64,000 nucleotides of DNA from Escherichia phage JS98. This document shows positions 5,418 to 63,958 of this stretch, piece after piece. A model generated the notes under the pieces. It had not been told where the DNA came from. It saw only the letters and a program-made list of their open reading frames with translations, and searched no databases. The stretch is taken from the sequence record NC_010105.1; one strand, 5' to 3'. Made by a program: the position numbers and the translations under genes. Numbering within the stretch: the stretch's first letter is position 1; the number at the start of each line of letters is the position of its first letter.

Positions 5418-5972
5418 TCAGTTCTTGTAGAACCGGAACGGGTTCACGTGGAAGGCCAACATAGCTTTAGGGATTTTACGAGACAAAAGACTCTTAAGCT
5501 TCCAGCCACAGTACACGCGAAGGTAAAATGTGATTCCGCCGACCTTAAGATAAGGAACTGAAGCAAATACACCCCAGGCGTCATCATTCCACATCCACAA
5601 CCAACCATGGTGAGCTTTATCAGGAGAACCTGATTCTACGTCAGGATTACCACGATAATGGAATTCCGAGCTACAATCACGGCCTAGTTTATGATAAGCA
5701 AAGTTATAAGCTTTATTTCGCCATAGCCAAGCTACTCTCTGGAGATAAACACCACCAGGCATTTTCCTGATTTTAGCCCAACGTTTAATATGACCTTTAT
5801 CGCCGTCAATTGGATTATCGTATGTCATCATCCAATCAAAACCGTATGGCAATTTACCAGTCTTTTTATTATGAAAAGGAACCACAAAAGGCGCAAGGAT
5901 AACGGCTAGAACCATAGAGATAAAATCTAGTGGGACCAACAGAATCCAACTCAAATATTTTAAAAGTTTCAT
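5418..5972 (-). CDS. N-terminally membrane-anchored Trp-rich protein of unknown function (184 aa), late-expressed
   Basis: ORF track. TM segment LSWILLVPLDFISMVLAVILAPFVVPF. Own TATAAATA promoter. Flanked by repeated terminator cassettes. Confidence 0.65.
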   Translation of the reverse strand: MKLLKYLSWILLVPLDFISMVLAVILAPFVVPFHNKKTGKLPYGFDWMMTYDNPIDGDKGHIKRWAKIRKMPGGVYLQRVAWLWRNKAYNFAYHKLGRDCSSEFHYRGNPDVESGSPDKAHHGWLWMWNDDAWGVFASVPYLKVGGITFYLRVYCGWKLKSLLSRKIPKAMLAFHVNPFRFYKN

Positions 5973-5998
5973 ATTATTTCCTAAGTTAGTTTACTGTA

Positions 5999-6006
5999 TA
6001 TTTATA
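5999..6006 (-). promoter_or_regulatory. late promoter TATAAATA
   Basis: Exact TATAAATA 27 nt upstream of the ATG at 5972. Part of the repeated cassette. Confidence 0.7.
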
Positions 6007-6013
6007 CAAAAAA

Positions 6014-6035
6014 GGCCCAACCTTTCGGAAGGGCC
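6014..6035 (-). terminator. rho-independent terminator (repeat cassette copy 2), end of the tRNA/ncRNA transcript
   Basis: Hairpin identical to 5381-5402, followed by TTTTTTG on the minus strand. Confidence 0.65.
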
Positions 6036-6039
6036 TTTA

Positions 6040-6205
6040 ACCTAGGGTAACCTTGTCGGGGTTCCACCTGCTAGGCAAGTGTTCTGTGCGCCGTTTCAGC
6101 TGTGAGATAAGGGACTTTAAGAGGAACTCATGTACTCCTTAAAGTCGGGTCTTATTCAGGGAACTTCAGTCCGACGACTTACCGGTAGCGACCCGGTTTC
6201 TTGTT
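6040..6205 (-). ncRNA. candidate stable structured RNA(s), positional analogue of T4 rnaD/rnaC
   Basis: About 165 nt non-coding stretch between tRNA-Arg and a terminator. Several hairpins, e.g. GACTTTAAGGAG...CTCTTAAAGTC and CACTTGC-CTA-GCAGGTG. In T4, stable RNAs follow tRNA-Arg. Confidence 0.35.
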
Positions 6206-6281
6206 TGGTCGAGACAGTAGGGATCGAACCTACGACCTACGGTTTAGAAGACCGTTGCTCTTCCTTCTGAGCTATGCCTCG
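6206..6281 (-). tRNA. tRNA-Arg (anticodon UCU)
   Basis: Hand-folded cloverleaf. Acceptor CGAGGCA/TGTCTCG, anticodon arm ACGGT-CTTCTAA-ACCGT, T-loop GTAGG-TTCGATC-CCTAC, encoded CCA. Confidence 0.85.
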
Positions 6282-6285
6282 TATT

Positions 6286-6360
6286 TGGCGGACATGCATG
6301 GATTCGAACCATGGACCAATTGATTAACAGTCAACTGCTCTACCGCTGAGCTACACATCC
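6286..6360 (-). tRNA. tRNA-Asn (anticodon GUU)
   Basis: Hand-folded cloverleaf. Anticodon arm GTTGA-CTGTTAA-TCAAT, T-arm CATGG-TTCGAAT-CCATG, encoded CCA. Confidence 0.8.
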
Positions 6361-6364
6361 AAAT

Positions 6365-6438
6365 TGGTGGCCCTGGGTGGAATCGAACCACCATCCAGCG
6401 ATTATGAGTCGCTCGCTTGACCGTCCAGCTACAGGGCC
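6365..6438 (-). tRNA. tRNA with CAU anticodon (elongator Met or lysidine-type Ile2)
   Basis: Perfect acceptor GGCCCTG/CAGGGCC, anticodon arm AGCGA-CTCATAA-TCGCT, T-arm GGTGG-TTCGATT-CCACC, encoded CCA. Lacks initiator features. Confidence 0.8.
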
Positions 6439-6443
6439 TTAAT

Positions 6444-6710
6444 TTAAATTACAAATCCAGCAGGAGCATTATCGTCTTTAGCCATGTGCTGAATTGTATG
6501 ATAAGTCATTTCTTCAGGAGCAACCAGATAAGCCGCAGCATTAACTAGTGGAATTATTTTTGGTTTAGCGAATGTGCTATCGGCAATTGCCATAAAGGGC
6601 TCGCCGTCGGTCTCAACTTCGCCAAATTGGCATTCATATGAAATAGAACAACGTTTAGTAGTTGTTGTCTTGGTTTCTGGGTCATAAAAAGCTAATTTTA
6701 ATACTAACAT
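6444..6710 (-). CDS. hypothetical protein (88 aa)
   Basis: The ORF-track start is a GTG. The ATG at 6710 has a GAGG SD 5 nt upstream. Confidence 0.55.
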   Translation of the reverse strand: MLVLKLAFYDPETKTTTTKRCSISYECQFGEVETDGEPFMAIADSTFAKPKIIPLVNAAAYLVAPEEMTYHTIQHMAKDDNAPAGFVI

Positions 6711-6839
6711 AAACACCTCAAATAAAATTAAGTAAAGTAAGTTTGATTAATAGACCTTGTCTATTATGAAAGGCTCTTTGAGGGAAGAACCTTTGGTAAT
6801 AGAGGGTATTAATGATAGAGTAATAATATCACATAATTC

Positions 6840-7325
6840 TTAAAGCATATCAAGTGCTTTCACATCAGGGATTTTAATTTCTTCTTCAATAATATACAGC
6901 TTAACGTAAGAAATTACACGGATGAAATCACCATCATATTCACAAGCCATACCAAGGAGCTCAGTAAGGGCTTCATTCAAGTAGTATTCTTCTTCGTCAT
7001 CGTTCAGCAAGGCTTCTAAGTCTTGGATACCGAGGACTTTATCTAAAAATTCAGGAGTCAATTGGCCTGATTTTACACCAGATTCAATGTGGGCAATAAC
7101 CAGATGCTTAACTACGTCCCATTCCGAATTACCACATTTATCCGGGTTGTTGCAATGAGAACCATGGAAAAGTTCTAGGATATATTTGTACTGTTGGATT
7201 TCATGTTCTTCTACGCCAAATACAGTCTGGGTTTTATAGTTATCGCCATCATTTTCCCAGGTTTCAATTTCAATTGCATAACCTTTAGGGATAATTTGTC
7301 CGAATTTAATATTCATTGTGGCCAC
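6840..7325 (-). CDS. hypothetical acidic protein (161 aa)
   Basis: ORF track. Overlaps and is coupled with the upstream gene. Confidence 0.6.
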   Translation of the reverse strand: MATMNIKFGQIIPKGYAIEIETWENDGDNYKTQTVFGVEEHEIQQYKYILELFHGSHCNNPDKCGNSEWDVVKHLVIAHIESGVKSGQLTPEFLDKVLGIQDLEALLNDDEEEYYLNEALTELLGMACEYDGDFIRVISYVKLYIIEEEIKIPDVKALDML

Positions 7326-7603
7326 ATATTAATGTAATCAAGTTTAATAGAAGCAATTTTCAAAGGATTTTTAAAGATGTCATATTCGACCAACCCATTT
7401 TCATTTGCCGTATAAAAAGTAAAGTTAACAGAATTATAGCGTTGGCTGTTAACTTTGAGTTTAACATCGCTTGAACTACGGCCAATATTAACCTGTTGAA
7501 CATCAAGCACAGCATCTTTGCCGTAATTTCGAATCAACAACTCAGCTGCAACCTGATCGGATTTATAGCCATTCTCTGGATTAGTAACCTTAACGTATAA
7601 CAT
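7313..7603 (-). CDS. hypothetical protein (96 aa)
   Basis: ORF track. Abuts the upstream gene stop. Confidence 0.55.
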   Translation of the reverse strand: MLYVKVTNPENGYKSDQVAAELLIRNYGKDAVLDVQQVNIGRSSSDVKLKVNSQRYNSVNFTFYTANENGLVEYDIFKNPLKIASIKLDYINMWPQ

Positions 7604-8259: not shown

Positions 8260-8553
8260 TTATTTTGTAATTTCTTTGATTTTAGAAACTACTTTATCTT
8301 TGGTAAGACCGGAAAAAGTCTTATATTTTGTAAAGTGGATATCATCACCAAGATTAATATAATATTTCTTTTTAACCGTATTGAATGCTATACTAACAGG
8401 TTTACCATTTACTGTAATAGTAATTTGCTGAGCCTTATCAACATCACCTGAGCCAAAGGCTCTTTTAATATCGCTACTAATATCGGCCATAGCCGCTTTG
8501 TTAATGGAATACAAATCTGTCGATTCTTTGATAAATTCTTGATAAGTTTTCAT
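8260..8553 (-). CDS. internal head protein candidate with capsid-targeting leader (97 aa)
   Basis: N-terminus MKTYQEFIKE is nearly identical to the T4 IP leader MKTYQEFIAE, with an I-x-E cleavage site. Confidence 0.7.
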   Translation of the reverse strand: MKTYQEFIKESTDLYSINKAAMADISSDIKRAFGSGDVDKAQQITITVNGKPVSIAFNTVKKKYYINLGDDIHFTKYKTFSGLTKDKVVSKIKEITK

Positions 8554-21591: not shown

Positions 21592-22452
21592 ATGATTAAG
21601 CAAACTGGTAAAGAACTAATTGACGTCGGTGAAATTGGTAATGCCAGCACCGGCGACATTCTTTATGACGGCGGTGTTAAACTGAACACTGACTTAAACA
21701 ACATCTATAATACTTTCGGCGACCAACGTAAAACAGCTTTAACCGGCGAATTGACCGGCCAGAAATTACACGCTACAGGGTATTATCAAAAATTTGGTGA
21801 TATGGACCAAGCAAGCTCGGTTGATTTAGGCTCTTTGGTGGATATCGATGCTTCTAGCGGTTCTATCGTATTAACCACTGTAAAGGGTGCAGTTGGTGAA
21901 GGAATTGAGATTATCAACTCTAACGGAAGTATTTCATCTACTAACTATCTTGAAATCCGTATATTAGATACTTTTGCAAGTCATCCTACTTCAACCCTGC
22001 GTATTGTAACCCCTTATACCCGAGTTCTTTTATGGTGCGTATCGGATACAAACGGTGTTGCGGTATGGGATTATTCAATTGAAAGCATGTTTGGTGATAA
22101 ACGAGTTCCATTAAATAAGACATATAATATATCTTCTGTCGCTCGTGATATCCCGGTGGTTTATTCAGGTCAGTATTCATTGGTCAAACTTTTAGTTACT
22201 GCAGTGAATGCCAACGAAACCATTTACAAAGCTTCAGAATATCTTGTGTTTATCGACAACCAAGCTAAAAAGATTTATTCCACTGAATACGCAGTTATTA
22301 AACGTGGACAAACTTCAGATGATGACGAAATTTATTCTCTAGATTTTAAATTCGATACATCAAACTATATTATCGCGACCGCTTCTTCTGTCAATCCTAT
22401 GAGGCTTGCAATTAAGGTCGTAGAAACCCAAACTATTGGAGTTCCAGTATAA
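21592..22452 (+). CDS. 9: gp9 baseplate wedge / long tail fibre socket
   Basis: LIDVGEIGNASTGDILYDGG...YNTFGDQRK matches the T4 gp9 N-terminus. Confidence 0.92.
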   Translation: MIKQTGKELIDVGEIGNASTGDILYDGGVKLNTDLNNIYNTFGDQRKTALTGELTGQKLHATGYYQKFGDMDQASSVDLGSLVDIDASSGSIVLTTVKGAVGEGIEIINSNGSISSTNYLEIRILDTFASHPTSTLRIVTPYTRVLLWCVSDTNGVAVWDYSIESMFGDKRVPLNKTYNISSVARDIPVVYSGQYSLVKLLVTAVNANETIYKASEYLVFIDNQAKKIYSTEYAVIKRGQTSDDDEIYSLDFKFDTSNYIIATASSVNPMRLAIKVVETQTIGVPV

Positions 22453-24263
22453 TGAAACAAGACTTAAAAGTAGGTTCCGCTGTTGATGACGGGTCCGGTG
22501 ATTACCTGCGTGCAGGTGGTCTTAAAATTAATAACAACTTCAATGAGCTTTATTACCAATTAGGCGACGGCAATAACCCACATGCCGCAGGCGCTTGGAA
22601 ACAACATTCTACTGAAGACGGTGCTTTGTTGAATGCCGTAATGGGCCATAGCTATACCCTTAATACCCAGGGTGGGCGTATTAACGTCCAGCTTCCTAAA
22701 GGCTCTCCTGAAGAATATAACTTTGTTATCCGTGTACGTGACGTGTATTCTTCATGGCAAGCTAACCCAGTAACCTTAATCCCTGCCACAGGTGATACCA
22801 TTAAGGGTTCAGCTACTCAAGTTGAAATTGCTCGCAACTTCTCTGACCTTGAATTGGTTTATTGTGCGCCTGGTCGTTGGGAATATGTTGAAAATAAGCA
22901 AGTAAACCGTATTCCAAATAACGACCTTGCTACCGTAGCAACTAAACAGTTTATTGCAACTGAAGGTCAAACAGATTTTCTAGATGTTTTCCCTGGCCTT
23001 TCTTACAACGTAGCAAGTTTAAGCGTTTCACAACGTGGTAACAATTTGTTCTATGGTGTTGATGATATTTTTGATGCTGCTACCGCAGAGTTTGGTTCTC
23101 CAGGTGCTCAACCAGGCGAATTGGTTGCCTTGAATGGTAAGGACATTCGTTTAAAATATCCATGCGAAGCAGGTGATACTGTTATTATCAAATCGTATAA
23201 TGACGGACTTGCCCAATGGCGCAGTTCTTATAACCGCCGTGATATAACAATCAAAAGTTCAGAATTGACTAAAGACGTTTCTGTTCCTGGCTCTTCTTTC
23301 GTGGGTGATTTGAGTACTTCACATGTTATATCAGCAGCTGATTTGAATATTTCCGTTAACAGTCCTATCAACCCAAATGCTTGCCAAGTCATGCTTAATA
23401 GCACATTACTTCATCAAGCTGGTACTGCTGGCCTTCCTTCGTTTTATTGTGAAGGTGCCGACGGACGTACTGCTACCGAGTGTTTTAATGCAGGTGGGCA
23501 ATGGACCCAATCTAAATCAGACTATATTTTTAATTTGACCCCTGAAGATAAGATTGAATCCATCGAATTTGGACGTGACTTTGAACATGGTGATATTCTT
23601 ACGGTAATTTGGTATAATAACGATATCGGCACCACCATGGAAATTGATGAGATTTTGGATTATACCAATAACATCTATATTTCTAAAGGCCCTTCTATTG
23701 ATATATCAGGCCAGGTTCGTATCACTGATGTAGATAATCCTTTTGCACCTAACGTTGAACCTGTCGCCCCATCTAATATTACAATAGATACAGCATCGAC
23801 ATTTTTTGATTTAATTTACCCTGTAGGAACCATCTATGAGAACACGGTGAACCCTAATAACCCTAAAACTTATATGGGCTTTGGTTCATGGAAGCGTTTA
23901 TCTGATGTGTTCTTGGTAGGTTGGTCTCCTGACGCTGGTTCTTTGTTTAATGCAAATAATAACGACCTGGATTCAGCGGGTGTTCCACAATCAACTGCAG
24001 GCGGGACTGGTGGTGCTCATGTGGCTAATTTGAAATATGAGAATATCCCAGAACTTAATACAGATGATAAAGTCCTTATTGCTGATAACGATGGCCCTAT
24101 TTTTGTAGGTGGATGTTTAGTTGACCCTGATTCACAAGGACCGGCTTATACAAAATATCGTGAAGATAAAGCCAGTATTAATAAGGCTCAAGGGACCACT
24201 CCTATCCCGGTTAATACTCTACCACCATACTTAACTGTTCATCGCTGGATGAGGATTGCATAA
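22452..24263 (+). CDS. 10: gp10 baseplate wedge / short tail fibre attachment
   Basis: MKQDLKVGSAVDDGSGDYLRAGGLKINNNFNELYYQLGDG matches the T4 gp10 N-terminus. Confidence 0.92.
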   Translation: MKQDLKVGSAVDDGSGDYLRAGGLKINNNFNELYYQLGDGNNPHAAGAWKQHSTEDGALLNAVMGHSYTLNTQGGRINVQLPKGSPEEYNFVIRVRDVYSSWQANPVTLIPATGDTIKGSATQVEIARNFSDLELVYCAPGRWEYVENKQVNRIPNNDLATVATKQFIATEGQTDFLDVFPGLSYNVASLSVSQRGNNLFYGVDDIFDAATAEFGSPGAQPGELVALNGKDIRLKYPCEAGDTVIIKSYNDGLAQWRSSYNRRDITIKSSELTKDVSVPGSSFVGDLSTSHVISAADLNISVNSPINPNACQVMLNSTLLHQAGTAGLPSFYCEGADGRTATECFNAGGQWTQSKSDYIFNLTPEDKIESIEFGRDFEHGDILTVIWYNNDIGTTMEIDEILDYTNNIYISKGPSIDISGQVRITDVDNPFAPNVEPVAPSNITIDTASTFFDLIYPVGTIYENTVNPNNPKTYMGFGSWKRLSDVFLVGWSPDAGSLFNANNNDLDSAGVPQSTAGGTGGAHVANLKYENIPELNTDDKVLIADNDGPIFVGGCLVDPDSQGPAYTKYREDKASINKAQGTTPIPVNTLPPYLTVHRWMRIA

Positions 24264-53364: not shown

Positions 53365-53839
53365 TAAAGAGATTTCCATTCCTAAATTGGGTCTTAAACA
53401 CCAAAAATTGGTTAAAGATGAAAAAGACCCTTATAAAGCTCTTCATATATTAATGAGTTCCATTTATAAGGGTTTAACTGCAGCCGAAACCGATTTCGCT
53501 GCTCTTCATCTTTTAGAATTCAACGGACGGCTAAAAGAAAAGGTAACTAAGGATGGGTTTACGTATAACCTAAATGACCTTTATATCTGCCAACGTCTTG
53601 AATTCCAATTCCAAGGTAAAACATTTAAATTTAAATCACATGAACCGTTCCAAACATTTGGTCCTGTTGATAGTGTATTACAATCCCTTTACCTTGGGGA
53701 CGATGTACCAGATTTTCTGGATATGCCTGCCTTTGTTGCTACATGGGCCGACGATATAACTTCTACTGTAGCTATCCCTGGTCCTAATGGTCCTATTAAA
53801 GGATTGCTTAAAATCATGGATATCTTAAATGAAGAATGA
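53318..53839 (+). CDS. 28: gp28 baseplate hub distal subunit
   Basis: Synteny. Start set to ATG 53318 (GAAGG SD), overlapping the end of gene 27. Confidence 0.75.
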
Positions 53840-55565
53840 ATCTAATCAGAATAGTTTTCGTCGCAATAAACTGATTGAAGAAATGGCTCCTCAGCGTCGT
53901 GCTGAGGCGCTAGCCCAAACCCAGAACGACGAATTAGGAAATATAACAGAAGCTTTATCAGAAACCCAGGCGGCGTCTGAATTGCTCTCTGAAGTTGTTG
54001 AAACAAAGTCTAATCAGATTATTAATTCTATAGACCGAGTAGATAAAAGTGTTCAAGATGTTGTCGCCGGAACAGAATTAACGGCTGAAGCTATATCAGA
54101 GCAAACCCAACAATCTAAAGCTCTTTCGGATGCATTAAACGAAAAGATTAATAAGCTTTCTAATATGTTGGAGGCTAAATTCTCTGGTATTTCTATTCCG
54201 CCGGAAGGGAGCTCGTTAAAGGTTATTGAAGACTCTATTCCTGAAGAACCTAAGGCTGAAACTCCTAAAGTTCCTGCTGTTATTGAAGATATTCTTCCGC
54301 CTGAAGATAATAAACCTGACGCTGAATTTGTACCAGAGCCTCCTAAAAATTCGGATGAAGGTAAAGAAGGTGATAAGTCTTCTCTTTCCGATAAAATCGA
54401 AGCCCTTACAAAAATAACCGAAAAAGGATTTAAAGCTTCTATAGGCGTCGCTGATAGAATTTCAGGTATGCTTTTTAAGTATACTATTACTGCCGCCGCT
54501 GAAGCTGCTAAACTCGCCGCAGGCCTAGCCCTTTTAATATTTGGTATAGATGCTATTCGTGTATACTTCCAATATTTCATGGACCAATTTAATGAAGGAT
54601 GGAAAAAATTTAACGATAAGTTTAAAGAGTGGGGACCCGTACTTGAAGGCTTAATGACCTGGGCCAAGAATGCTGAAGCTATGTTTAGCGAAAGAAATTG
54701 GCTAGGTCTGGCTGAAGCTATTATTCGCGGTATGGTTAATCTTACCAAAAATATGGCACAACTGTTAATGCTCGGTATTTCTAAATTGATTTCTGCTATT
54801 TTAAGTAAAATACCGGGTATGGGTGATTTGGCTGAAAACGTAGAGGCATCCGCTTTAATGTCGTATCAACAAAATACCGGAGCCACTTTAGATGACGAAG
54901 ACCAAACTAAAGTAGCCAAGTACCATGATAGACGTTCAGCTGAGGCTTTAGAAACAGCCGAGAAAATGAATAAGAAGTATAAGGGTAAACCTGAGCTTAT
55001 AAACCAGGCAGAGAAATACGGTAACCTTACTAAAGAACAAGCCGACCAATTACGCGCTGGTGGAATTGACACAAGCTTCCGTGACCTCCCTGAAGAAGAA
55101 CGTTTAGAGTATTTTAAGAAACGTGATAAAGCCCAGGCTGATATTATTCGTTTAACTCAAACCGCCGATAATATAATGAAGCCTGATTCTAAAGATATCG
55201 AAAATGCCAAGGCATTTAAAGCGGATATCGAGAAACAATTGGCTGACCCTATTATGGCTAAAGGTGGAGCACCTAAGGACCTTAATATCCAGCAATTACT
55301 TGATAAGATGAATAAATCTTTAGAGAAATTTAATGAAGCTGAAAAGCCTAAACCTGCTTCTGTAGCGGAATCTCCTGAAAATACTCAGGTTAAAAAGGTT
55401 GACGAGCAAATGAGAGCAAAGGAAAATGCTAAATATAGTCAGCAAGCTCCAACTCAAATAAATCAGCAAACGAATATCAAGAAAACGAGTAAGACTAGTT
55501 ATAATTTACCACCACAGTCTTCCACTCCTGCTCCTGGTATGCGTCAAGCTACTAAAGTTAATTAG
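53829..55565 (+). CDS. 29: gp29 baseplate hub / tail length tape-measure
   Basis: Synteny and size (578 aa). Extended helical low-complexity sequence. Confidence 0.88.
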   Translation: MKNESNQNSFRRNKLIEEMAPQRRAEALAQTQNDELGNITEALSETQAASELLSEVVETKSNQIINSIDRVDKSVQDVVAGTELTAEAISEQTQQSKALSDALNEKINKLSNMLEAKFSGISIPPEGSSLKVIEDSIPEEPKAETPKVPAVIEDILPPEDNKPDAEFVPEPPKNSDEGKEGDKSSLSDKIEALTKITEKGFKASIGVADRISGMLFKYTITAAAEAAKLAAGLALLIFGIDAIRVYFQYFMDQFNEGWKKFNDKFKEWGPVLEGLMTWAKNAEAMFSERNWLGLAEAIIRGMVNLTKNMAQLLMLGISKLISAILSKIPGMGDLAENVEASALMSYQQNTGATLDDEDQTKVAKYHDRRSAEALETAEKMNKKYKGKPELINQAEKYGNLTKEQADQLRAGGIDTSFRDLPEEERLEYFKKRDKAQADIIRLTQTADNIMKPDSKDIENAKAFKADIEKQLADPIMAKGGAPKDLNIQQLLDKMNKSLEKFNEAEKPKPASVAESPENTQVKKVDEQMRAKENAKYSQQAPTQINQQTNIKKTSKTSYNLPPQSSTPAPGMRQATKVN

Positions 55566-56662: not shown

Positions 56663-57615
56663 TGTATACTTTACAAGAATTTCAAAACCAGGCAATTAAT
56701 ATTGACCTACAAAGGAATAACCTGTTTAGTGTAGTATTTGCTACAGTTCCTTCTTCTAAATCCCAAGCGCTCCTCGACCAGTTCGGTGGAGCTTTATTTA
56801 ACAATATCCCGTTGAATACCGATTTGTTTGGAATTACCCAAGGAGATTTAACCCAAGGTGTTACGACATTAGTGACAGCGGGCACTCAGAAGTTGATTCG
56901 TAAGTCAGGCATAAGTAAATATCTGATTGGAGCTATGTCATCCAGGGTTGTGCAGAGCTTACTAGGTGAGTTTGAAGTCGGAACTTATCTTATGGATTTT
57001 TTCAATATGGCTTATCCTACGGCGGGTCTTTTAGTCCATGCCGTTAAAATTCCGGATAATACTTTGAACTATGAAATGGATTTGAACCACAACTCGCCTA
57101 ATATCAAAATTACCGGAAGAGAATATTCCCCATTGGTATTAAGCTTCCGTATGGATTCTGAAGCTGCTAACTACCGTGCTTTTAATGATTGGGTCAATAG
57201 TGTCCAAGACCCTATTACACAATTAAGAGCATTGCCTGAAGATGTTGAAGCTGACATCCAAGTCAACCTTCATTCTCGTAATGGATTGCCACATACGGTG
57301 GTAATGCTTAATGGATGTGTTCCTGTTAGTGTTTCATCGCCGGAATTATCCTATGATGGTGATAACCAAATTGCTTCGTTTGATGTTACATTTGCTTATA
57401 GAAGTGTGCAGACAGGTGCAGTTGGTAAACAAGCTGCTTATGAATGGCTGGAAGATAAAGTCCTTAAAGGCGTAGCAGGTATAAGTGAGAGTAACTCATT
57501 AAGTGCTTCTGTAGCTAAATTAAGCCGACTTTCAGGAGCTTCTAGTGGATTGACCGGATTGGTTAATACATTTGGTGGGCGTGCTATTAATAATGGAATA
57601 TCCAGGTTGCTATAA
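56662..57615 (+). CDS. 54: gp54 baseplate-tail tube initiator
   Basis: Synteny and size (317 aa). Confidence 0.88.
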   Translation: MYTLQEFQNQAINIDLQRNNLFSVVFATVPSSKSQALLDQFGGALFNNIPLNTDLFGITQGDLTQGVTTLVTAGTQKLIRKSGISKYLIGAMSSRVVQSLLGEFEVGTYLMDFFNMAYPTAGLLVHAVKIPDNTLNYEMDLNHNSPNIKITGREYSPLVLSFRMDSEAANYRAFNDWVNSVQDPITQLRALPEDVEADIQVNLHSRNGLPHTVVMLNGCVPVSVSSPELSYDGDNQIASFDVTFAYRSVQTGAVGKQAAYEWLEDKVLKGVAGISESNSLSASVAKLSRLSGASSGLTGLVNTFGGRAINNGISRLL

Positions 57616-57619
57616 CAAA

Positions 57620-57643
57620 AAAGGAGAGCGTAAGCTCTCCTTT
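57620..57643. terminator. bidirectional terminator between gene 54 and the minus-strand early gene
   Basis: AAAGGAGAGC-GTAA-GCTCTCCTTT, flanked by A-run and T-run. Confidence 0.75.
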
Positions 57644-57649
57644 AGGGGT

Positions 57650-57940
57650 TTATTTACGGAACGAAATGAAACCTGCTGCTGTCATTAATGGCTGCTTTTT
57701 AACAAAGACCGTAATAGAAATAGGAGCTTCAGATTCAAGCTGGCCGGTTACTACACCATTAAAGATATTTTCAGTTTGTTCGGGTTGTGAAAAATTTTCA
57801 ATTGGACGTAAGTCGAACTGCTTGTCTTCGCCGAAAACTCGACGTAATTCATTACCGACTGCACTGTCGAACTCTTCAGAAGCAGGGATAACGTTTTCAA
57901 CTACCAGTTCTTGACCGTTAAAGCGGAATGCAGATTTCAT
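57650..57940 (-). CDS. hypothetical early protein (96 aa) downstream of alt
   Basis: ORF track. Early promoter 57969-57997 with a conserved leader. Lies at the position of the T4 alt.-x small genes. Confidence 0.6.
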   Translation of the reverse strand: MKSAFRFNGQELVVENVIPASEEFDSAVGNELRRVFGEDKQFDLRPIENFSQPEQTENIFNGVVTGQLESEAPISITVFVKKQPLMTAAGFISFRK

Positions 57941-57968
57941 AATGTTCTCCTCATGTTTGTGTAAGGTA

Positions 57969-57997
57969 ATAGTACCACATCCTTGTGGTGTTGTAAA
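57969..57997 (-). promoter_or_regulatory. T4-type early promoter
   Basis: Minus strand GTTTACA-17 nt-TACTAT. The leader is 34/37 identical to the one at 420-456. Confidence 0.65.
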
Positions 57998-60124
57998 CTA
58001 CATTTTGAATTTATTTGGTAAAGAAGAGATGTCCAAAGATGCAGCAAGGATTTCCATAGCCTCATTACTTTCTGAAACAGATTCTGAAACTAGGAATTCT
58101 TTAAACCCGTTCATCAATTTAACTTCACCGGTTTCCATCAGATGGTCACCATCGTAAACGGACTCACTGAGTTCTGAAGGAGATGTCACTGTAGCTTCCA
58201 TAAGGTATTTGTGAGATACTCTATCATTCATAGCAAAAGCCGCTACTTTATCAACCTTCAACAATAATCCTCGCGGAAGGATAATTTCTGCTTCTTCGGA
58301 ATATTCTGTAAGGTCACCAGGAGCGATAACTTTAACTGCTTCAGCACCTCGAATAACCATACCGATTTCAGCAATCCTGTCTGCAGGGCCTTCAGGTGCA
58401 ATTGGATTACCGAACTCGTCTTCTTCCCATTCTACCTCTTCATCATCAACTTCGCCTACATCAGATGAACTACCACTGGCTAATTTAAACAACTCATCAG
58501 CGGAGGATAAAGAACCTTCATCACCAACAAAAACTGCTTGGTTGTCGAGGGCCATATAATTTTTACCAAATTCGCCAAAGATATTAGGCTTTAATGAAGC
58601 AGACACAAAGTTCTTAAAGTAAAATGTTTTGTTATCAATATTATGGCGCAGAATTTTGTATGGTAAATCCTGACCACGATACAAAATAGTACCCTTAGGA
58701 AGTTTAATACCCTTGGTAAATGCTGAGTCTAAATCCTTAATCAATTTAATAGCTGTTGTATTGTTTTCGGATTCAGGTTTACCTAAAAGGAATAAGTTCA
58801 TAGGAGCATATTCAGCCGCACAATATTCAATAATGGCATTGCTTTCGTCTTTGGTCAAGCCCTTAGGTTTAATGAGCTCGCCTGAATAAGCATATGCATC
58901 GCTAATAGAATCGTTAATCAGTTTATAAACGGCTTCCATAGCGAAAGCAATTCGGGATGCTTTCTCTGAAGGAGACCCCTGAAAACGGGCACTCAGGTTA
59001 TTAACAATTCTCTTAATAATATCCAGACTATTGGTAGTATTGATTTGAGAAAGGCCACTTAAAAGTCTATCGACTTCCGTATTAAAAAATGCCATATTAT
59101 TAGAGTAAATTTCAAACCCTTGTTTATCTCTATTAGCATAATTTAGTTTAAATTTACTATCAGTCATTAAAGCGTGCGTGAGAGCAATGGTGTATCTAAA
59201 GTTGGCAAGGTCCTCACTCTTAGATTTAAACTGAGAGGCCTGACGCATTTTAGTAATAGCACCTTTTTTAAAGTTCTGACTAATCTGCTCAATACCTTCG
59301 TTCTCAGGGCCTTCGGCCGAGTGAACAGGGACAGAAGCTTCAAACTCGTTATAAACCTGCAATTCTTTAGGTGATAAAGTTTCAGGTTCGGCAGTAGAAT
59401 ACTGCGCTGCTGCAGCCATACGACGGGAAATCTTAGTACGAGAAATAACAGCCTTATCGGTACGTTTCTCTTCAACCTGTGCAATAGATGCTGCTACGGC
59501 TTCGACCTTACTTACAGCCTGGCCGGTTTTCTTAGAAACATAAACTTCACCGACTTTAGACTCAACCTTGGTATAAAGGTCCGCATCAATTTCAGGCATA
59601 CCCTTGATATCTTCGATATTAGTGCCACGACGTGCTAAAAGAACGTATGTATGTTTACCACTAAACTGGAACATATCATCGACAACTTTAAACTTACCAC
59701 CGGTACGGGCCATCGCCAAACGAGCTAATACACGCTGAACAGTAGGGCCTTTACCTTTCATTTTCTTGGTAGGGAAACGGAATAAAACCGCATCCATTTT
59801 AAGTTTATTTACTTGTTCGTATATCGTATCGAAAATAGTATTCAATGTACCAAGTGGGTCGGAACCAAGGCCACCTTTGAGTTCAGCCGGGGCACCCTTG
59901 CTCGACAAACTCATTAAAATAACATGGACATATTTGTCGCCTGGCTTAACCATTTTAATAGCGTCTCCTTGAGACGCATAAGATACCATACGAGCAACCA
60001 GGTTATCGTTACCCGGTGCATGGATAGAGAAAATCTGTGGAATACCGGAACCCGGTTTAAGATTTGTTACTGGATAGTTTTTAGCGGAATCACTATCAAA
60101 AACCTCGTTTAAATTTTCCATCAT
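57998..60124 (-). CDS. alt: Alt-type ADP-ribosyltransferase, copy 1 (708 aa)
   Basis: N-terminal and middle blocks match T4 Alt (ELFTKVESKVGEVY..K.TGQ.V.K.EA.AASIA). R-S-E ART triad candidates LYRGQ, FVSASL, EAEIILPRG. Confidence 0.9.
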   Translation of the reverse strand: MMENLNEVFDSDSAKNYPVTNLKPGSGIPQIFSIHAPGNDNLVARMVSYASQGDAIKMVKPGDKYVHVILMSLSSKGAPAELKGGLGSDPLGTLNTIFDTIYEQVNKLKMDAVLFRFPTKKMKGKGPTVQRVLARLAMARTGGKFKVVDDMFQFSGKHTYVLLARRGTNIEDIKGMPEIDADLYTKVESKVGEVYVSKKTGQAVSKVEAVAASIAQVEEKRTDKAVISRTKISRRMAAAAQYSTAEPETLSPKELQVYNEFEASVPVHSAEGPENEGIEQISQNFKKGAITKMRQASQFKSKSEDLANFRYTIALTHALMTDSKFKLNYANRDKQGFEIYSNNMAFFNTEVDRLLSGLSQINTTNSLDIIKRIVNNLSARFQGSPSEKASRIAFAMEAVYKLINDSISDAYAYSGELIKPKGLTKDESNAIIEYCAAEYAPMNLFLLGKPESENNTTAIKLIKDLDSAFTKGIKLPKGTILYRGQDLPYKILRHNIDNKTFYFKNFVSASLKPNIFGEFGKNYMALDNQAVFVGDEGSLSSADELFKLASGSSSDVGEVDDEEVEWEEDEFGNPIAPEGPADRIAEIGMVIRGAEAVKVIAPGDLTEYSEEAEIILPRGLLLKVDKVAAFAMNDRVSHKYLMEATVTSPSELSESVYDGDHLMETGEVKLMNGFKEFLVSESVSESNEAMEILAASLDISSLPNKFKM

Positions 60125-62212
60125 TTACCCTTGGATGAATTTTTCTGGTATGCCATAGAGGTCTATGCATGAAGCCAAAAGAGGCAGTACGTCAAACCGT
60201 GTAGATTTAACAAATGAATCAAAAGATACAGGGCTTTCGGAAGTATCGAAGTCATCTTGGTATACGACCAACTCACCAGTTTCCATTAGTACGTCACCAT
60301 CATACACTACAGATTCTTGAAGCTCATCTGATGTCATAACTTCAGCTTGAATAAATTTATTGTTAGACACCGCCCCAGAACCAGTATTGGCTGATGCATC
60401 CACGATTTTATCTATTTTTACAAGTAGCCCGCGTGGTAAAATTATTTCCTTTTCGTTGGCATGCATGCTTAATTGGCCAGGATAAATCACGTTAACCTTA
60501 TGAGCGCCACTAATAGCCCAGCCAACATCAACACGGATTTGATCCGGTGCATACATATGTGTACGCACTTGACTAGCCGAGATGGTAACGCCTTCGTCAT
60601 TATTATCAATGTTTAATTCTTTTCGAACATCATCGGAAGCAAGACCAATAGCCGCATTCTCTTTAAAGCCACCAAAAATGATTGGAGCCAATGAGGTTGA
60701 AACATAGTTTCTAAAATAGAATACCTTATTTTTAACTAATGCTTCGTAGATAGGCGCGCGCAAAGATTGTGCTCTATAAACCATTATTCCTTCAGGTAAA
60801 CGGTCACCATTTTTAAAGGCAGAATCCATTCCATCAATAGCACGTTTAACTTCGCTTTCGTCCAAAACTTCATAAAAGCCCGGTTTATAACGGCCAAGAA
60901 GGACATTGTTAATATCAATATAAGCTGAAGAGGCGTATTCTCTGATAGCTCGTTTTTCTGCAAGTGTATATTGTTTAGGGTCTCGAGATGTTGTTATATT
61001 AAGAATTTCTCTAGTTGATTCTATAGCGTATGTATACATTATCTTAGACAAGAATGAAGACTTACGTTGTTTCCATACTCTTTCACTGTTTTCATTCAAT
61101 ATCTCTTTTTCCAAATGGAAATTGTCTTTTCTATAATCTTCAAACCAATCACTTTTAATAGATTCTGCGATTTCATTAGCAGCTTCAACAAAGGCGGCTA
61201 AAGCTTTAACTGACGTGGTTTTTTCATTTTTAATTTTTTTGACAAATTTTTCTAAAGAAGAGTTAATTTTATCACCGTAAGAAACTTCATCCGCAAATTT
61301 AAATGAATCATCCATAGTATTATAAATTTTAAAATCAATAGCCGTAGCCAGCTTATCCTTAGCTGTTTCGGATGATAATGATAATTCAACTTCGGCTGCT
61401 TGTGGAATTAATTCCGCCGTAGCAGGCGCACTGAACTCATTGGCAGTTTGTTCATATTTCTGAAATAATTCACCTTCATTACGGTCTGCTTCTAATGACT
61501 GGCTTGCCGCAATCGCACGACGAGAAATCTTAGTCTTGGTTATAACCATTTTATCAGTGCGACGTTCTTCAACTTTAGCAATACTGCCGGCAATAGCGGT
61601 TTCTTTAGTAACCTGAGCGCCTTCTTTTTTAGAAATATAAACTTCACCAACATCAGAATCTACCTTAGTATATAATTCGGCATTAATTCCAGGCATACCT
61701 TTGATATCTTCGATATCAGCTTGTTTACGAACTACTAGGATATAAGTATGTTTACCGGTAAATTGGTACATGGCTGGAACTACTTTAAAACGTCCACCGG
61801 TTTTCTGTGCTACCAAACGTTGGATAATCCGTTGGACAATAGGTCCTTGTCCTTTCATTTTCTTGGTTGGAAAACGGAACATCACAGCATCCATACGAAG
61901 CTTTTTAACTTGTTCGAATACTACGTCGAAAATGGTATTAATAGCATCAATAGGAGTAGGGCCTAATCCACCTTTAAGTTCGGCTGGAGTACCTTTAGCT
62001 GATAAACTCATCAAAATAACGTGGGCATATTTATCACCTAATTTAACCTGTTTAATAGCATCGCCTTCAGAGGCATAAGATACCATACGAGCAACTAATT
62101 GGGATTCGGCGTCGCCAATCTTCCAAATCTGGGGTACTTTAAGTTTTGGGTTTAAGTTTACAGTAGGCAGGGTGCCTTCGGACTCAAACACCTCATTCAA
62201 TTGTTCGGTCAT
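60125..62212 (-). CDS. alt: Alt-type ADP-ribosyltransferase, copy 2 (695 aa)
   Basis: Collinear paralog of the adjacent gene. ART triad candidates VYRAQ, YVSTSL, EKEIILPRG. The central roughly 250 aa are divergent. Confidence 0.9.
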   Translation of the reverse strand: MTEQLNEVFESEGTLPTVNLNPKLKVPQIWKIGDAESQLVARMVSYASEGDAIKQVKLGDKYAHVILMSLSAKGTPAELKGGLGPTPIDAINTIFDVVFEQVKKLRMDAVMFRFPTKKMKGQGPIVQRIIQRLVAQKTGGRFKVVPAMYQFTGKHTYILVVRKQADIEDIKGMPGINAELYTKVDSDVGEVYISKKEGAQVTKETAIAGSIAKVEERRTDKMVITKTKISRRAIAASQSLEADRNEGELFQKYEQTANEFSAPATAELIPQAAEVELSLSSETAKDKLATAIDFKIYNTMDDSFKFADEVSYGDKINSSLEKFVKKIKNEKTTSVKALAAFVEAANEIAESIKSDWFEDYRKDNFHLEKEILNENSERVWKQRKSSFLSKIMYTYAIESTREILNITTSRDPKQYTLAEKRAIREYASSAYIDINNVLLGRYKPGFYEVLDESEVKRAIDGMDSAFKNGDRLPEGIMVYRAQSLRAPIYEALVKNKVFYFRNYVSTSLAPIIFGGFKENAAIGLASDDVRKELNIDNNDEGVTISASQVRTHMYAPDQIRVDVGWAISGAHKVNVIYPGQLSMHANEKEIILPRGLLVKIDKIVDASANTGSGAVSNNKFIQAEVMTSDELQESVVYDGDVLMETGELVVYQDDFDTSESPVSFDSFVKSTRFDVLPLLASCIDLYGIPEKFIQG

Positions 62213-62234
62213 AATAATTCCTCTTTAATAACCG

Positions 62235-62242
62235 TATTTATG
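62235..62242 (-). promoter_or_regulatory. possible late promoter (CATAAATA, 7/8) for the alt genes
   Basis: Near-consensus octamer 22 nt upstream of the ATG at 62212. Confidence 0.4.
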
Positions 62243-62248
62243 CCATAA

Positions 62249-62264
62249 AAGGCCCGAAGGCCTT
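62249..62264 (-). terminator. rho-independent terminator upstream of the alt promoter
   Basis: AAGGCC-TTCG-GGCCTT, then TTTATGG on the minus strand. Confidence 0.55.
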
Positions 62265-62433
62265 AAAGTGGTAGCAACGTACGATATACTTCGAATGTCG
62301 GGCCTTTTTCATAGCCGTCAAACACGTCTTTAAAATCGGCAAAAGCTATTTCATCCTCAAACTCTAGGATGATTTGAGAGGCCGCAGTGTTATTTGTGTT
62401 TGTTACAACAATTGTTTCTAAATAAGCTTTCAT
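62263..62433 (-). CDS. hypothetical small protein (56 aa)
   Basis: Start set to ATG 62433, 1 nt after the ligase stop. The longer track ORF would overlap gene 30. Confidence 0.45.
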   Translation of the reverse strand: MKAYLETIVVTNTNNTAASQIILEFEDEIAFADFKDVFDGYEKGPTFEVYRTLLPL

Positions 62434-62434
62434 A

Positions 62435-63958
62435 TTATAGTCCAGTTTGAGACCAATCACCAAATACATCTTCAAATGTATCAGCTTCAGTTTTATCGAA
62501 ACGCCAACCTTTAATAATTGGAAGGAAAATACCTACAGTATCAGTACGTCCTTTAGAATGAACCCAACCATTACATTCACAGTCAGCAATACGTCCAATC
62601 AACTTACCTTCACGAGCTTGTTTCATAAGAAGTTCACGGTCTAAATCAGGGCGGTCTTCTAATGGAATCAACACCTTTTTACCTGATTTATCTTTCTTAT
62701 GGGTAGTATCTTTAAAGCCTGAGCCGCAGTCACTTGTAATTCGACGACAACGTGATACCAACTCGACACCGCCAAGTTTGTTAGGGTCCTTCGAGTGTTC
62801 ATAATAACCTACCACTTCTAAAGCGATATCGATTACTTCTTTGAACTTGATAAGATTCTTAGAACGGCGGTTTTCCCAGTAGGAGTCCATGTTCTTAAGG
62901 ATAATACCTTCCAGGCCTTGGTCGACATATTTCTTATAAACGACTTTAGCTTCGTCAAGATTATTGACCCATTGGTTTTCGATAGCTTCAACACGCGTTG
63001 TACCATGCAATACGACATTATGAGCAACCATAAGTTCTAAGGCAGTAAAGCGTACATCGTACTTATCGCCTTTAATTTTACCTTCGGAATATACGACATC
63101 CAATGGGACATAATCCCACGCCTGTAACACCATACCTGCTGCTTCGGTTGGGGTAATAGTTCCTTGAAGAGCCTTGTTAGCCAACCCGTTTGAAGTAGAA
63201 CGATCGGCTACGGTTTGGAATTCCTTGGCTTTACTTAATTCAGGAAGTTCCTCATCAAACATACTAAACAAATCATTAGATGCTTTAGGTTCTACTTTAG
63301 GAGTGTGGTAAACTAATTCGCCATCAATCATAACACCATTAGGATGGCGCTGTCGAGCTTCTTCGGTCATGGCCATTAATTCGGCCGCCAAAAGATTAAG
63401 CCCTTGGTATTCATTACCACCACGAGTAAGGAATGTTACGCCATCGTTACGAACTTCAGCAAAACAACGAGCACCGTCAGCTTTTAATTGGGCGAACGCG
63501 GGCCATTTAATATTTTTCTTAATCAAATCTTCATCATAAGAACTAGCCAACATTTGAGGTTGTTCAGGGATTAAACCTTTCCAAACCTTGTTAGCAATAG
63601 AAATCGATGCACCACATTCAAGGTCACGCATCATTACGCGACGTAATACCTCAGCGTCAGGACCCTTGGCATCAGCAATAATTTGGGCAAGCTCTTCAAT
63701 AGCAGCATTACCCGTAATCTTACGGGTGGCTAATGTGAACTCAGCGAAATCAAGAAGGTCTTCAAGTGTAATCATACCAAAGGATTGAGACGTAAATCCA
63801 GGTTCAGGCCACTTTTTAATACCGTAGTTCAGACGACGGGTATAAGCCATACGATATACACGTTTCAGAAGCTCGTTATCCTTTTCACGAGCAATAATAG
63901 CTTCTTTAGCTTTAGTAGAATCAATAGAAGCAATTTCGTTTAAAATATCTAAAATCAT
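62435..63958 (-). CDS. 30: gp30 ATP-dependent DNA ligase
   Basis: MILDILNEIASI.STK.K.AI...KDNELLKRVY and the adenylation motif AQLKADGARCF match T4 DNA ligase. Confidence 0.97.
   Translation of the reverse strand: MILDILNEIASIDSTKAKEAIIAREKDNELLKRVYRMAYTRRLNYGIKKWPEPGFTSQSFGMITLEDLLDFAEFTLATRKITGNAAIEELAQIIADAKGPDAEVLRRVMMRDLECGASISIANKVWKGLIPEQPQMLASSYDEDLIKKNIKWPAFAQLKADGARCFAEVRNDGVTFLTRGGNEYQGLNLLAAELMAMTEEARQRHPNGVMIDGELVYHTPKVEPKASNDLFSMFDEELPELSKAKEFQTVADRSTSNGLANKALQGTITPTEAAGMVLQAWDYVPLDVVYSEGKIKGDKYDVRFTALELMVAHNVVLHGTTRVEAIENQWVNNLDEAKVVYKKYVDQGLEGIILKNMDSYWENRRSKNLIKFKEVIDIALEVVGYYEHSKDPNKLGGVELVSRCRRITSDCGSGFKDTTHKKDKSGKKVLIPLEDRPDLDRELLMKQAREGKLIGRIADCECNGWVHSKGRTDTVGIFLPIIKGWRFDKTEADTFEDVFGDWSQTGL

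Follow-up and report, generated by a model that had tools for sequence, protein, structure and literature searches.

Two tandem Alt-family ADP-ribosyltransferase genes with sequence-unrelated centres at the alt locus of Escherichia phage JS98

Alt is the textbook case of a phage enzyme that is injected into the host together with the DNA and, to our knowledge, almost everything known of it comes from bacteriophage T4, which lost a second paralogue. The T4 protein (gpAlt, NAD+--arginine ADP-ribosyltransferase, UniProt P12726), encoded between gene 30/alt.1 and alt.-3/gene 54, is processed at both ends: cleavage at ITE-6 has been mapped by mass spectrometry, and a cut after LTE-619 removes 63 residues (PMC5694885). 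The mature mass recomputed from both cuts, 68.2 kDa, equals the published value.

The ADP-ribosyltransferase (ART) core of Alt, YR...S-T-S...E-x-E, is common to the C3/VIP2/binary-toxin enzymes (PF03496); the Alt-family profile matches BECa (E = 2e-4), Certhrax and SpvB, and the YR and ExE motifs align with those of BECa. This similarity is confined to parts of the ART core; Alt has an extra N-terminal (N) domain and a helical centre, and is delivered via the phage head and tail. T4 ModA and ModB, each of about 200 aa, have no counterpart of the Alt N domain, centre or propeptides known to us. Both belong to the R-S-E ART clade that includes Alt (PMC5512222), but are expressed early instead of being injected out of the head (PMC5512222, PMC10468400); RNAylation is efficient with ModB and only slight with Alt (PMC10468400). 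A different type of likeness is found with the T4 internal proteins IPI-III and with polymorphic or polyvalent effectors, which, as Alt appears to do, combine a conserved targeting part with a highly variable, horizontally exchanged payload; the prohead-protease processing logic and action as infection begins are further points in common (PMC3012670, PMC5512222). IPI-III are nevertheless targeted by a 10-aa capsid-targeting sequence (CTS), where Alt has a folded domain of approximately 235 aa, kept on the mature protein, and two propeptides, and the payload of Alt, by contrast with those of IPI-III and the polymorphic effectors, is always an ART.

The tandem alt genes and their family

The window analysed, a 64,000 nucleotide stretch of Escherichia phage JS98 (NC_010105.1), shares 99.1% identity with Escherichia phage MN04 (Dhakavirus JS98). 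Its list of open reading frames (ORFs) agrees exactly with the initial annotation in placing an ORF of 708 aa (57998-60124, minus strand) beside one of 695 aa (60125-62212, minus strand). Both are flanked by gene 30 (ligase) on one side and gene 54 on the other and are read from the strand that does not encode the baseplate genes, and the gene order, gp29-gp48-gp54 / alt.-3-altB-altA-alt.1-gene 30, is that of T4. We identify the region as a Dhakavirus alt locus of the JS98 type, in which altA (60125..62212, minus strand), encoding a 695-aa A-type Alt ADP-ribosyltransferase and adjoining alt.1 and gene 30, is the counterpart of T4 alt. Downstream, altB (57998..60121, minus strand) encodes a 707-aa B-type paralogue corresponding to the long Alt.-2 of RB27, RB32 and RB51. 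The two genes had been described as having no spacer, and the TAA stop codon of altA does directly abut the ATGATG of altB; yet since the equivalent junction is conserved as TAA-ATN-ATG in T4, RB27 and KIT01, the start of altB is placed at the second ATG (60121), leaving a 3-nt spacer as in the MN04 and JS10 annotations, with the in-frame ATG at 60124 as an alternative.

Such pairs are not peculiar to JS98. As the records of JS10 and IME08 name the two genes alta and altb, the tandem arrangement is a previously known feature, annotated in public genomes and common among T4 relatives, some of which have three alt copies; for the JS98 window itself, this is an ordinary gene pair, annotated before.

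Both proteins match T4 Alt, as first proposed: PHROG 802 ('Alt-like RNA polymerase ADP-ribosyltransferase') covers them end to end, spanning residues 1-694 of 695 in altA (E = 1e-257) and 1-708 in the longer altB ORF (E = 9e-252), and in full-length BLASTP comparisons altA is 43% and altB 33% identical to T4 Alt. Against a PF03496 cut-off of 23.4 bits, altA scores 100 bits (E = 1.3e-28) and altB 65 bits (E = 7e-18). The ART domain of altA (60314..60976, minus strand; aa 413-633) contains R480, S505-T-S507 and E587-K-E589, and that of altB (58163..58861, minus strand; aa 421-653) R482, S507-A-S509 and E610-A-E612, such that altB has S-A-S in place of S-T-S. Every motif originally quoted, including the R-S-E candidates, is present in the pair (LNEVF, LVARMVSYAS.GDAIK, YRAQ/YRGQ, STS/SAS and E.EIILPRG). 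Across 130 homologues, the Arg column is conserved in 129, and the Ser and each Glu of E-x-E in all 130. T4 E577, the mutation of which to alanine inactivates Alt (PMC11404850), aligns to the second Glu of EME, and hence of E-x-E. Proper alignment therefore reveals no loss of catalytic residues from either copy, and altA and altB are both classed as full-length arginine ADP-ribosyltransferases of the Alt family in which the R, S-x-S and E-x-E residues are intact, from which we infer that both are enzymatically active.

Full-length altA and altB contained no Pfam domain besides PF03496, and neither MuF nor other polyvalent-protein domains; the isolated N domains had no match in a Pfam search, PF26846 being the precomputed assignment for all homologues. 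Any resemblance to MuF-fused or polyvalent effectors is one of logic only. Membership of the binary ADP-ribosylating toxins (VIP2/iota/C2/BEC) was likewise rejected, as prediction gives the centres an all-helical and not an ART-like structure, and no gene for a B component or translocation partner was found in the altA/altB neighbourhood.

Signals for processing and transcription

At positions aligned with the T4 cleavage sites, both proteins retain prohead-protease motifs of the form (L/I)xE: LNE-7 and LQE-633 in altA, and LNE-6 and LSE-653 in altB. The predicted N-terminal propeptide of altA (62192..62212, minus strand) is MTEQLNE, cut before V at the site corresponding to ITE-6 of T4 Alt, and its predicted C-terminal propeptide (60125..60313, minus strand) comprises 62 aa past LQE-633, which aligns to T4 LTE-619, plus the stop codon. 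Similarly, altB is predicted to lose MENLNE (60104..60121, minus strand), again before V, and the 54 aa past LSE-653 (57998..58162, minus strand, including the stop codon). The N-terminal cleavage motif is LNEV in 94 of the 130 homologues.

Upstream of altA lies a late-promoter-like element (62235..62264, minus strand), consisting of a hairpin, AAGGCCTTCGGGCCTT, followed by CATAAATA, and then a Shine-Dalgarno sequence, AAAGAGGAA. The same hairpin occupies this position in T4 and RB27, where the canonical late promoter TATAAATA comes after it; the CATAAATA of JS98 differs from TATAAATA by one mismatch. Past alt.-3, a strong intrinsic terminator with a 10-bp stem and a T run (57620..57643, minus strand) ends transcription of the alt unit opposite gene 54. 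Because the (L/I)xE sites, the Alt N domain and the late-promoter-like element are all kept, altA and altB would both be expected to be packaged into the head by analogy with T4 Alt. An Alt protein of Mosigvirus has been detected in virions (PMC6563131), and its centre is 68% identical to that of altA. The initial annotation had also counted three CTS proteins in the window, but a strict capsid-targeting sequence of the T4 type was found in just two ORFs.

Regional divergence and exchange of cassettes

Overall, altA and altB are 41% identical (E = 7e-152), with similarity distributed unevenly: the shared N-terminal region that was noted at the outset extends over approximately 238 aa at 65% identity (74-83% at the nucleotide level), while the ART core is 41-48% and the C tail 34% identical. 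The N domains (altA 61499..62191, minus strand, aa 8-238; altB 59396..60103, minus strand, aa 7-242) are presumed to be lineage-specific modules for virion incorporation and delivery. They are followed by the A-type cargo centre of altA (60977..61498, minus strand, aa 239-412), a variant common to KIT01 and Mosigvirus, and the B-type cargo centre of altB (58862..59395, minus strand, aa ~243-420). These had been described as essentially unrelated over some 250 residues; they are indeed only 11-16% identical, but over a length closer to 175 residues. Comparing the altB centre with A-type centres generally gives 10-16% identity, and hhalign of the altB centre against an A-type profile found no homology at the profile level (probability 0.5%). 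AlphaFold2 models both centres as eight helices, with a mean pLDDT of 82 for altA and 68, indicating moderate confidence, for altB. Both are thus predicted to be all-helical, and the similar eight-helix patterns mean they could represent one fold diverged past sequence recognition, in which case different binding targets would not be required. The ART domain holds another variable stretch, from S-x-S to E-x-E, in which altB has a very acidic insertion of around 40 residues, longer than in the Tequatrovirus long Alt.-2 and altb proteins used for comparison. The predicted mature proteins have pI values of 7.75 (altA) and 5.91 (altB).

Each type of centre is widespread. The altA centre is homologous to the canonical alt centres of 782 phage records, although nearer the Mosigvirus variant (67% identity) than those of T4 and RB27 (23-34% identity; T4 alone 23-24%). 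B-type centres, which cluster together by BLAST, are present in 444 of the 1,200 phage records carrying an Alt N domain (~37%). JS10 altb and altB are 99% identical. Relative to the long Alt.-2 of RB27, altB is 47% identical over its full length, with 67-69% identity in the ART core and 44-47% in the centre, and its centre is 42-44% identical to that of RB32 alt.-2. It shares a KFKM C terminus and a position downstream of alt with the long Alt.-2 of Tequatroviruses (RB27 YP_009102398, RB32, RB51, ime09) and with altb of JS10 and IME08, but differs from the former in having a Dhakavirus-type N domain. On this basis, altB is classed as a member of a second, old cargo lineage found in many Tequatroviruses and deleted in T4. 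The T4 alt.-1 and alt.-2 ORFs, noted earlier as alt paralogues by Nolan 2006 (PMC1524935), match the first 116 codons of the long Alt.-2 gene and are recognisable as the remnant of a deletion of about 1.7 kb (~1.69 kb), leaving T4 with one full-length copy where JS98 has two. It is mainly through this loss that the B type has been little studied, the searchable literature holding no experimental data on either JS98 Alt or on any B-type Alt.

The N domains and ART domains group differently. In the N-domain tree, sequences group by phage lineage, with the A and B copies of Tequatrovirus together (94% bootstrap), whereas in the ART tree they group by cargo type, with 100% bootstrap for both the A clade and the B clade, the latter including RB27 long Alt.-2. 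The altA N domain, 65% identical to that of altB, is only 42-47% identical to Tequatrovirus copies of either type, and that of altB 42-45%. Close relatives can also carry different centre and ART cassettes behind the same N domain. For instance, JS10 altA is 98% identical to the window's altA in the N domain and C tail, but between breakpoints at about aa 244 and 637 its centre is not alignable at the DNA level, and its ART core is 93% identical to that of RB27 Alt. Likewise, the same T4-like cargo follows an A-slot N domain in P0098 but one of the B slot in Bp7 P0006, and at least three sequence-unrelated centre families occur in the 130 homologues. As N domains follow lineage, ARTs follow cargo type and cassettes have been swapped, the alt locus appears to behave as a delivery module with exchangeable payloads.

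Function and origin of the pair

We consider it probable that altA and altB are two paralogous, head-packaged and injected Alt transferases, each joining a delivery part to an exchangeable payload, and most likely differing in their targets. Read one after the other from the late-promoter-like element, each gene would yield a precursor of ~78 kDa in five parts, as in T4 Alt: a short N-propeptide, an N domain of ~235 aa, a helical centre of ~175 aa, an ART domain representing a C3/VIP2-class arginine-specific mono-ADP-ribosyltransferase, and a C-propeptide of 54-62 aa. By analogy with T4 Alt, both precursors would enter the prohead core and be trimmed by the gp21 protease at the (L/I)xE sites to ~70 and ~71 kDa, remain in the head, enter the cell with the DNA and ADP-ribosylate host proteins ahead of any phage gene expression. 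The delivery part, which follows phage lineage, would be the N domain, joined by the C-propeptide where JS10 is compared, with the centre and ART as the exchangeable unit. Different substrate sets are most likely because the centres are unrelated and the S-x-S/E-x-E loop is variable; since T4 Alt modifies many proteins, some overlap between them is quite possible.

How the pair arose is less certain. Dhakavirus and Tequatrovirus may have duplicated alt independently, one copy in each later acquiring a B-type centre and ART horizontally, as opposed to a single old duplication after which the N domains were homogenised. Independent duplication is a credible though not a favoured history: it would account for the clustering of N domains by lineage, and cargo exchange between genera and slots is directly observed, yet a weak type signal persists in the N domains (altA 47% to RB27 Alt against 42% to Alt.-2, with 45% against 42% for altB), gene order is the same in both genera (A by the ligase, B by alt.-3), and the type-specific C termini, KF.QG and KFKM, are also the same in both. 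This history leaves the functional reading unchanged.

Less plausibly, altB could be a redundant dosage duplicate, sharing the targets of altA, chiefly RNA polymerase alpha, and supplying an extra injected dose or a back-up. The common architecture, catalytic motifs and similar centre helix patterns would fit such a role, and T4 grows without a second copy, but one would expect a dosage copy to remain similar, or to be homogenised, along its whole length, as the N domain is. Instead, the centres lack detectable homology, the ARTs form their two separate clades, each kept across genera, members of one type sharing 67-69% identity and the two types ~40%, and the predicted mature proteins differ in charge. 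It is very improbable that altB is not an injected enzyme at all, being either catalytically weak and mainly a structural core protein, as its S-A-S motif, its acidic insertion and the description of Alt as a head core protein besides an enzyme (PMC11404850) might suggest, or an ART made late that stays in the cytoplasm and never enters the head, given that the catalytic Arg, first Ser and both Glu are intact in a domain well recognised by PF03496, that its N domain and both protease sites are kept as in the packaged T4 protein, and that the B type is conserved in so many records.

If the B-type enzyme does have host targets of its own, host takeover in the earliest seconds of infection by most T-even-like phages would be broader than the T4 model implies. 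A more tentative extension, which we regard as somewhat short of an even prospect, is that the alt locus of T4-type phages constitutes a polymorphic injected-effector system, with an N-domain chassis, with or without the C-propeptide, carrying shuffled centre and ART cassettes of which the B type could have targets of its own, possibly in a defence system rather than RNA polymerase; cassettes may then move between slots, species and genera, a genome having a single slot or as many as three or more. The chassis-plus-payload layout points to natural junctions, near aa 240 and at the site of C-terminal cleavage, which could serve in engineering proteins for delivery from T4-type heads.

The tandem alt genes of JS98

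Towards the end of the window, the + strand carries gp29 (53829-55565) followed by gp48 and gp54, which is the T4-type gene order, and on these converges a series of genes on the - strand: alt.-3 (57650-57940), encoding a 96 aa homologue of T4 Alt.-3, lies just 3' of altB (57998-60124; 708 aa as an open reading frame), and is followed by altA (60125-62212; 695 aa), alt.1 and the DNA ligase gene gp30 (62435-63958). The initial annotation identified altB and altA as tandem Alt ADP-ribosyltransferase (ART) genes with no intervening spacer; its coordinates, lengths and quoted motifs are all correct, and the lack of a spacer holds for the ORFs, as TAA is directly followed by ATGATG. Because the counterpart of this junction in T4, RB27 and KIT01 is TAA-ATN-ATG, the conserved start of altB is the second ATG (60121, giving 707 aa), which is also the start chosen by annotators. 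Both proteins match PHROG 802 (Alt-like ART) from end to end (E values of 1e-257 for altA and 9e-252 for altB) and score well over the cut-off for Pfam PF03496, with 43% and 33% identity to T4 Alt, respectively; no NCBIfam model matched altA, altB, alt.-3 or alt.1. The pair is therefore real and correctly identified, but also ordinary, being already annotated in Dhakaviruses and many other T-even relatives. Over positions 57600-62500 the window shares 99.1% identity with Escherichia phage MN04 (Dhakavirus JS98) and 90-97% with other Dhakaviruses. The MN04 annotation of each ORF is 'NAD(+)--arginine ADP-ribosyltransferase'; in JS10 and IME08, the ligase-side gene is named alta and the gene 54-side gene altb.

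In an alignment of 130 homologues, of which 120 came from a database search and the rest are the copies in the window, JS10, KIT01, RB27 and T4, only one sequence lacks the catalytic Arg, and the first Ser and both Glu of the E-x-E motif are invariant. These correspond to R480, S505-T-S507 and E587-K-E589 in altA, and to R482, S507-A-S509 and E610-A-E612 in altB; with R, S and E-x-E intact in each, neither copy is missing its catalytic residues, in keeping with the candidates initially proposed. The second Glu of the equivalent E-M-E in T4 is E577 (T4 record numbering), and T4 Alt carrying E577A is inactive in vivo (PMC11404850). The Alt family profile matches the binary-toxin ART BECa (E value of 2e-4), Certhrax and SpvB, with alignment of the YR and ExE motifs; such toxin ARTs were reached by the family profile only, as a phmmer search of altA against PDB sequences returned no match. 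The suggestion that one copy is a decaying pseudogene was rejected, since both ORFs are intact, their motifs are kept and the type is widely conserved.

Over their full lengths altA and altB share 41% identity (E value of 7e-152), and both have the same layout of an N domain of ~235 aa, a centre, an ART domain and a C tail. The initial annotation held that the central ~250 residues are essentially unrelated; the lack of relationship stands (11-16% identity), but the region is about 175 residues long (altA 239-412, altB ~243-420). When alignments of the A-type and B-type centres were compared profile to profile, the probability of homology was 0.5%. A second variable stretch lies within the ART domain, from S-x-S to E-x-E, where altB has a strongly acidic insertion of ~40 residues. 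This insertion, DVGEVDDEEVEWEEDEFGNPIAPEGPADR (approximately 58370-58500 in the window, residues ~540-585), is longer than that in the long Alt.-2 of RB27, and lowers the predicted mature pI.

AlphaFold2 predicted eight helices in the altA centre (mean pLDDT of 82, from a 41-sequence alignment) and eight in a similar order in that of altB (mean pLDDT of 68, from six sequences). Foldseek searches of viral models with the altA centre found A-type Alt proteins only, and those with the altB centre no significant match; likewise, no local Pfam match was found for the N domains or centres. Both centres are thus predicted to be helical domains of no recognised family. A reading of the centre as a second, degenerate ART domain of the kind known from binary toxins was rejected, as an all-helical structure is predicted.

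Distribution of the A and B types and the remnants in T4

When the altA centre was used as a tblastn query, 782 phage records were found to carry the canonical alt gene; identity was 66-68% for Mosigviruses and 25-36% for Tequatroviruses, T4 among them. The altB centre matched 444 phage records, 42 at 95% identity or above (Dhakaviruses) and 402 at 42-45%; the latter are a second, full-length Alt gene of many Tequatroviruses, named 'alt.-2' in RB32, RB27 and ime09. The long Alt.-2 of RB27 is 47% identical to altB over its full length, and both end in KFKM. At this position T4 has only two small ORFs, alt.-1 (61 aa) and alt.-2 (67 aa), which match residues 1-56 and 62-116 of the long RB27 Alt.-2 at 96% identity; this stretch (6333-6718 of the T4 locus) corresponds to codons 1-116 of the RB27 B-type gene (22101-24158 of the RB27 locus), interrupted by a frameshift. 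DNA comparison shows that T4 lacks ~1.69 kb, 22449-24138 of the RB27 locus, and together with the remnants this indicates that the B-type gene was deleted in T4. T4 alt.-1 and alt.-2, along with extra ORFs in RB49 and 44RR, have been described as alt paralogues (Nolan et al. 2006, PMC1524935), and the B-type lineage has apparently not been characterised in the searchable literature. The placing of altB in a widespread Alt lineage that T4 has lost is hence context added to the existing annotation. Two PHROGs of 'unknown function', 23015 (61 positions) and 15247 (67 positions), match residues 2-58 and 66-117 of altB, respectively; being of the same lengths as T4 alt.-1 and alt.-2, they appear to have been built from such remnants.

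Searching with the N domain found 1,821 places in 1,200 phage records. Three alt copies are present in KIT01, UGJNEcP3/4, WG01, PSD9 and E33, among the 30 best records matching the alt region, and also in fDHCT2, from the N domain search; alt genes in tandem are thus frequent and have been recorded before. The third Dhakavirus copy (5526-7571 of the KIT01 locus) sits between altA and altB, and combines a B-like N domain, 89-90% identical to that of altB, and an A-like C terminus with a centre and ART domain of its own type, the centre being at most 23% identical to every reference. Two protein searches with the altB centre alone were unhelpful: a word-indexed search returned no match, even to JS10 altb, apparently because such an index handles short queries poorly, and an exhaustive HMMER search of 1.84 billion representatives returned six long proteins with 5-14 short matching stretches each, read as compositional and uninformative on distribution.

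Cassette exchange behind lineage-specific N domains

The N domains of paralogues within one genome are 65-68% identical, whereas those from different genera are 42-47% identical whichever types are compared. The centre and ART domain have the reverse pattern: between altB and RB27 Alt.-2, identity is 44-47% for the centre and 67-69% for the ART core, against 11-16% and 41% between altA and altB. Similarly, a neighbour-joining tree of N domains groups them by phage lineage, with the Tequatrovirus A and B copies together (94% bootstrap), while one of ART domains groups them by type, with 100% support for both the A and the B clade. Independent duplications followed by horizontal acquisition of cargo, that is of centre and ART domain, are a possible, if tentative, account of these groupings. 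Recent gene conversion between the altA and altB N domains was rejected, as their longest common stretches are just 74-83% identical.

Exchange of the cassette formed by centre and ART domain is evident from individual genes. The N domain and C tail of JS10 altA are 98% identical to those of the window's altA, but with RB27 Alt it shares 93% identity in the ART core and 65-67% in the centre; nucleotides 681-1937 align to RB27 alt at 79.6%, and the first 680 nt have no blastn match in RB27. Identity between the window and JS10 falls from > 90% to 42-79% across ~60300 to ~61480, corresponding to altA residues ~244 to ~637; the first of these lies at the close of the N domain, and the last is only a few residues away from where C-terminal cleavage is predicted. 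Likewise, T4-like cargo is found behind an N domain of the ligase-side slot in the metagenomic homologue P0098, and behind one of the gene 54-side slot in P0006 from Bp7. Their ART domains pair with 100% bootstrap, and their cassettes show matching identity levels against every reference, including 80-81% to the ART domain and 58-59% to the centre of T4 Alt; these two provide direct evidence of cargo movement between slots. Further cargo variants occur on Dhakavirus-type N domains (P0002, P0003/P0005, P0007, which is the middle copy of KIT01, and P0101/P0103), and BLAST clustering of the 130 centres gave three families (94, 17 and 9 members) and ten singletons.

As N domains track lineage, cassettes track type and cassettes are swapped, the locus can be described as a conserved delivery chassis with exchangeable payloads. 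It is this modular structure, with its clear cassette exchange, that goes beyond existing annotation. It is reminiscent of T4 internal proteins, which have a conserved CTS and a variable body (PMC3012670), and recalls the organisation of polymorphic or polyvalent effectors (PMC5512222), although a Pfam search of both proteins and their N domains found no MuF or similar domain. Precomputed matches to Pfam PF26846.1 accompany PF03496 in all 120 database homologues; we would guess that this family covers the Alt N domain.

Processing, packaging and putative targets

Mass spectrometry of T4 heads has shown that the prohead protease gp21 cuts Alt after ITE-6 and LTE-619, removing 6 N-terminal and 63 C-terminal residues to leave a mature protein of 68.2 kDa (PMC5694885); applying these cuts to the T4 sequence again gave 68.2 kDa. 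The aligned motifs are LNE-7 and LQE-633 in altA, and LNE-6 and LSE-653 in altB, and almost every one of the 130 homologues has (L/I/V)xE at each position. Cleavage there would give mature proteins of 69.9 kDa (pI 7.75) for altA and 71.1 kDa (pI 5.91) for altB. Upstream of altA, a hairpin, AAGGCCTTCGGGCCTT, precedes CATAAATA, and a strong Shine-Dalgarno sequence comes next; this hairpin is likewise present at the corresponding position in T4 and RB27, where the canonical late promoter TATAAATA follows it. An AAGGG precedes the altB start by ~7 nt, and as no promoter-like element of its own was seen upstream, translation of altB probably relies on the late transcript that carries altA. Alt has been found in purified Mosigvirus virions (PMC6563131), and the centre of this protein is 68% identical to that of altA. 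Taken together, the cleavage motifs, the late-promoter-like element and the Mosigvirus virion protein make packaging of both altA and altB proteins likely.

By analogy with T4, both precursors would enter the prohead core and be trimmed by gp21, and the mature forms would remain in the head until ejected with the DNA, whereupon they may ADP-ribosylate host proteins; RNA polymerase is among the host proteins targeted by T4 Alt (PMC5512222, PMC10468400). The anatomy of the proteins suggests that substrate choice is set by the centre and the variable loop from S-x-S to E-x-E, and the targets of altA and altB would therefore differ at least in part. As T4 Alt performs RNAylation only slightly (PMC10468400), this is less likely to be the main activity of altA and altB. 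It is improbable that altB is a redundant copy affecting dosage, even with a shared catalytic apparatus, as the ART domains of the two types fall into separate clades and the centres have no profile-level homology. That altB is unpackaged or largely structural is very unlikely, given both its cleavage motifs and its catalytic residues. The identification of altA and altB is unchanged by either of these alternatives, or by independent duplication.

Downstream, alt.-3 is preceded by a sigma-70-like TTTACA-17-TACTAT with an upstream TG, resembling a T4 early promoter (57969-57997), and followed by a strong terminator with a 10 bp stem (57620-57643); in T4, the CmdTAC defence system is evaded by mutants in which Alt.-3 is extended at its C terminus (PMC11618068). 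The initial annotation also counted three CTS proteins in the window. Two ORFs with a strict T4-type CTS were found, both on the - strand (4731-5348, starting MKTYNEFLNE, and 8260-8553, starting MKTYQEFIKE), but the pattern M[KR].[YFL].[ED][FLIM][ILV].E revealed no third. The late promoter octamer TATAAATA occurs 18 times in the whole window, against 7.7 expected and a count that no shuffle reached, with most copies on the + strand in the structural gene block at 28.7-47.8 kb.
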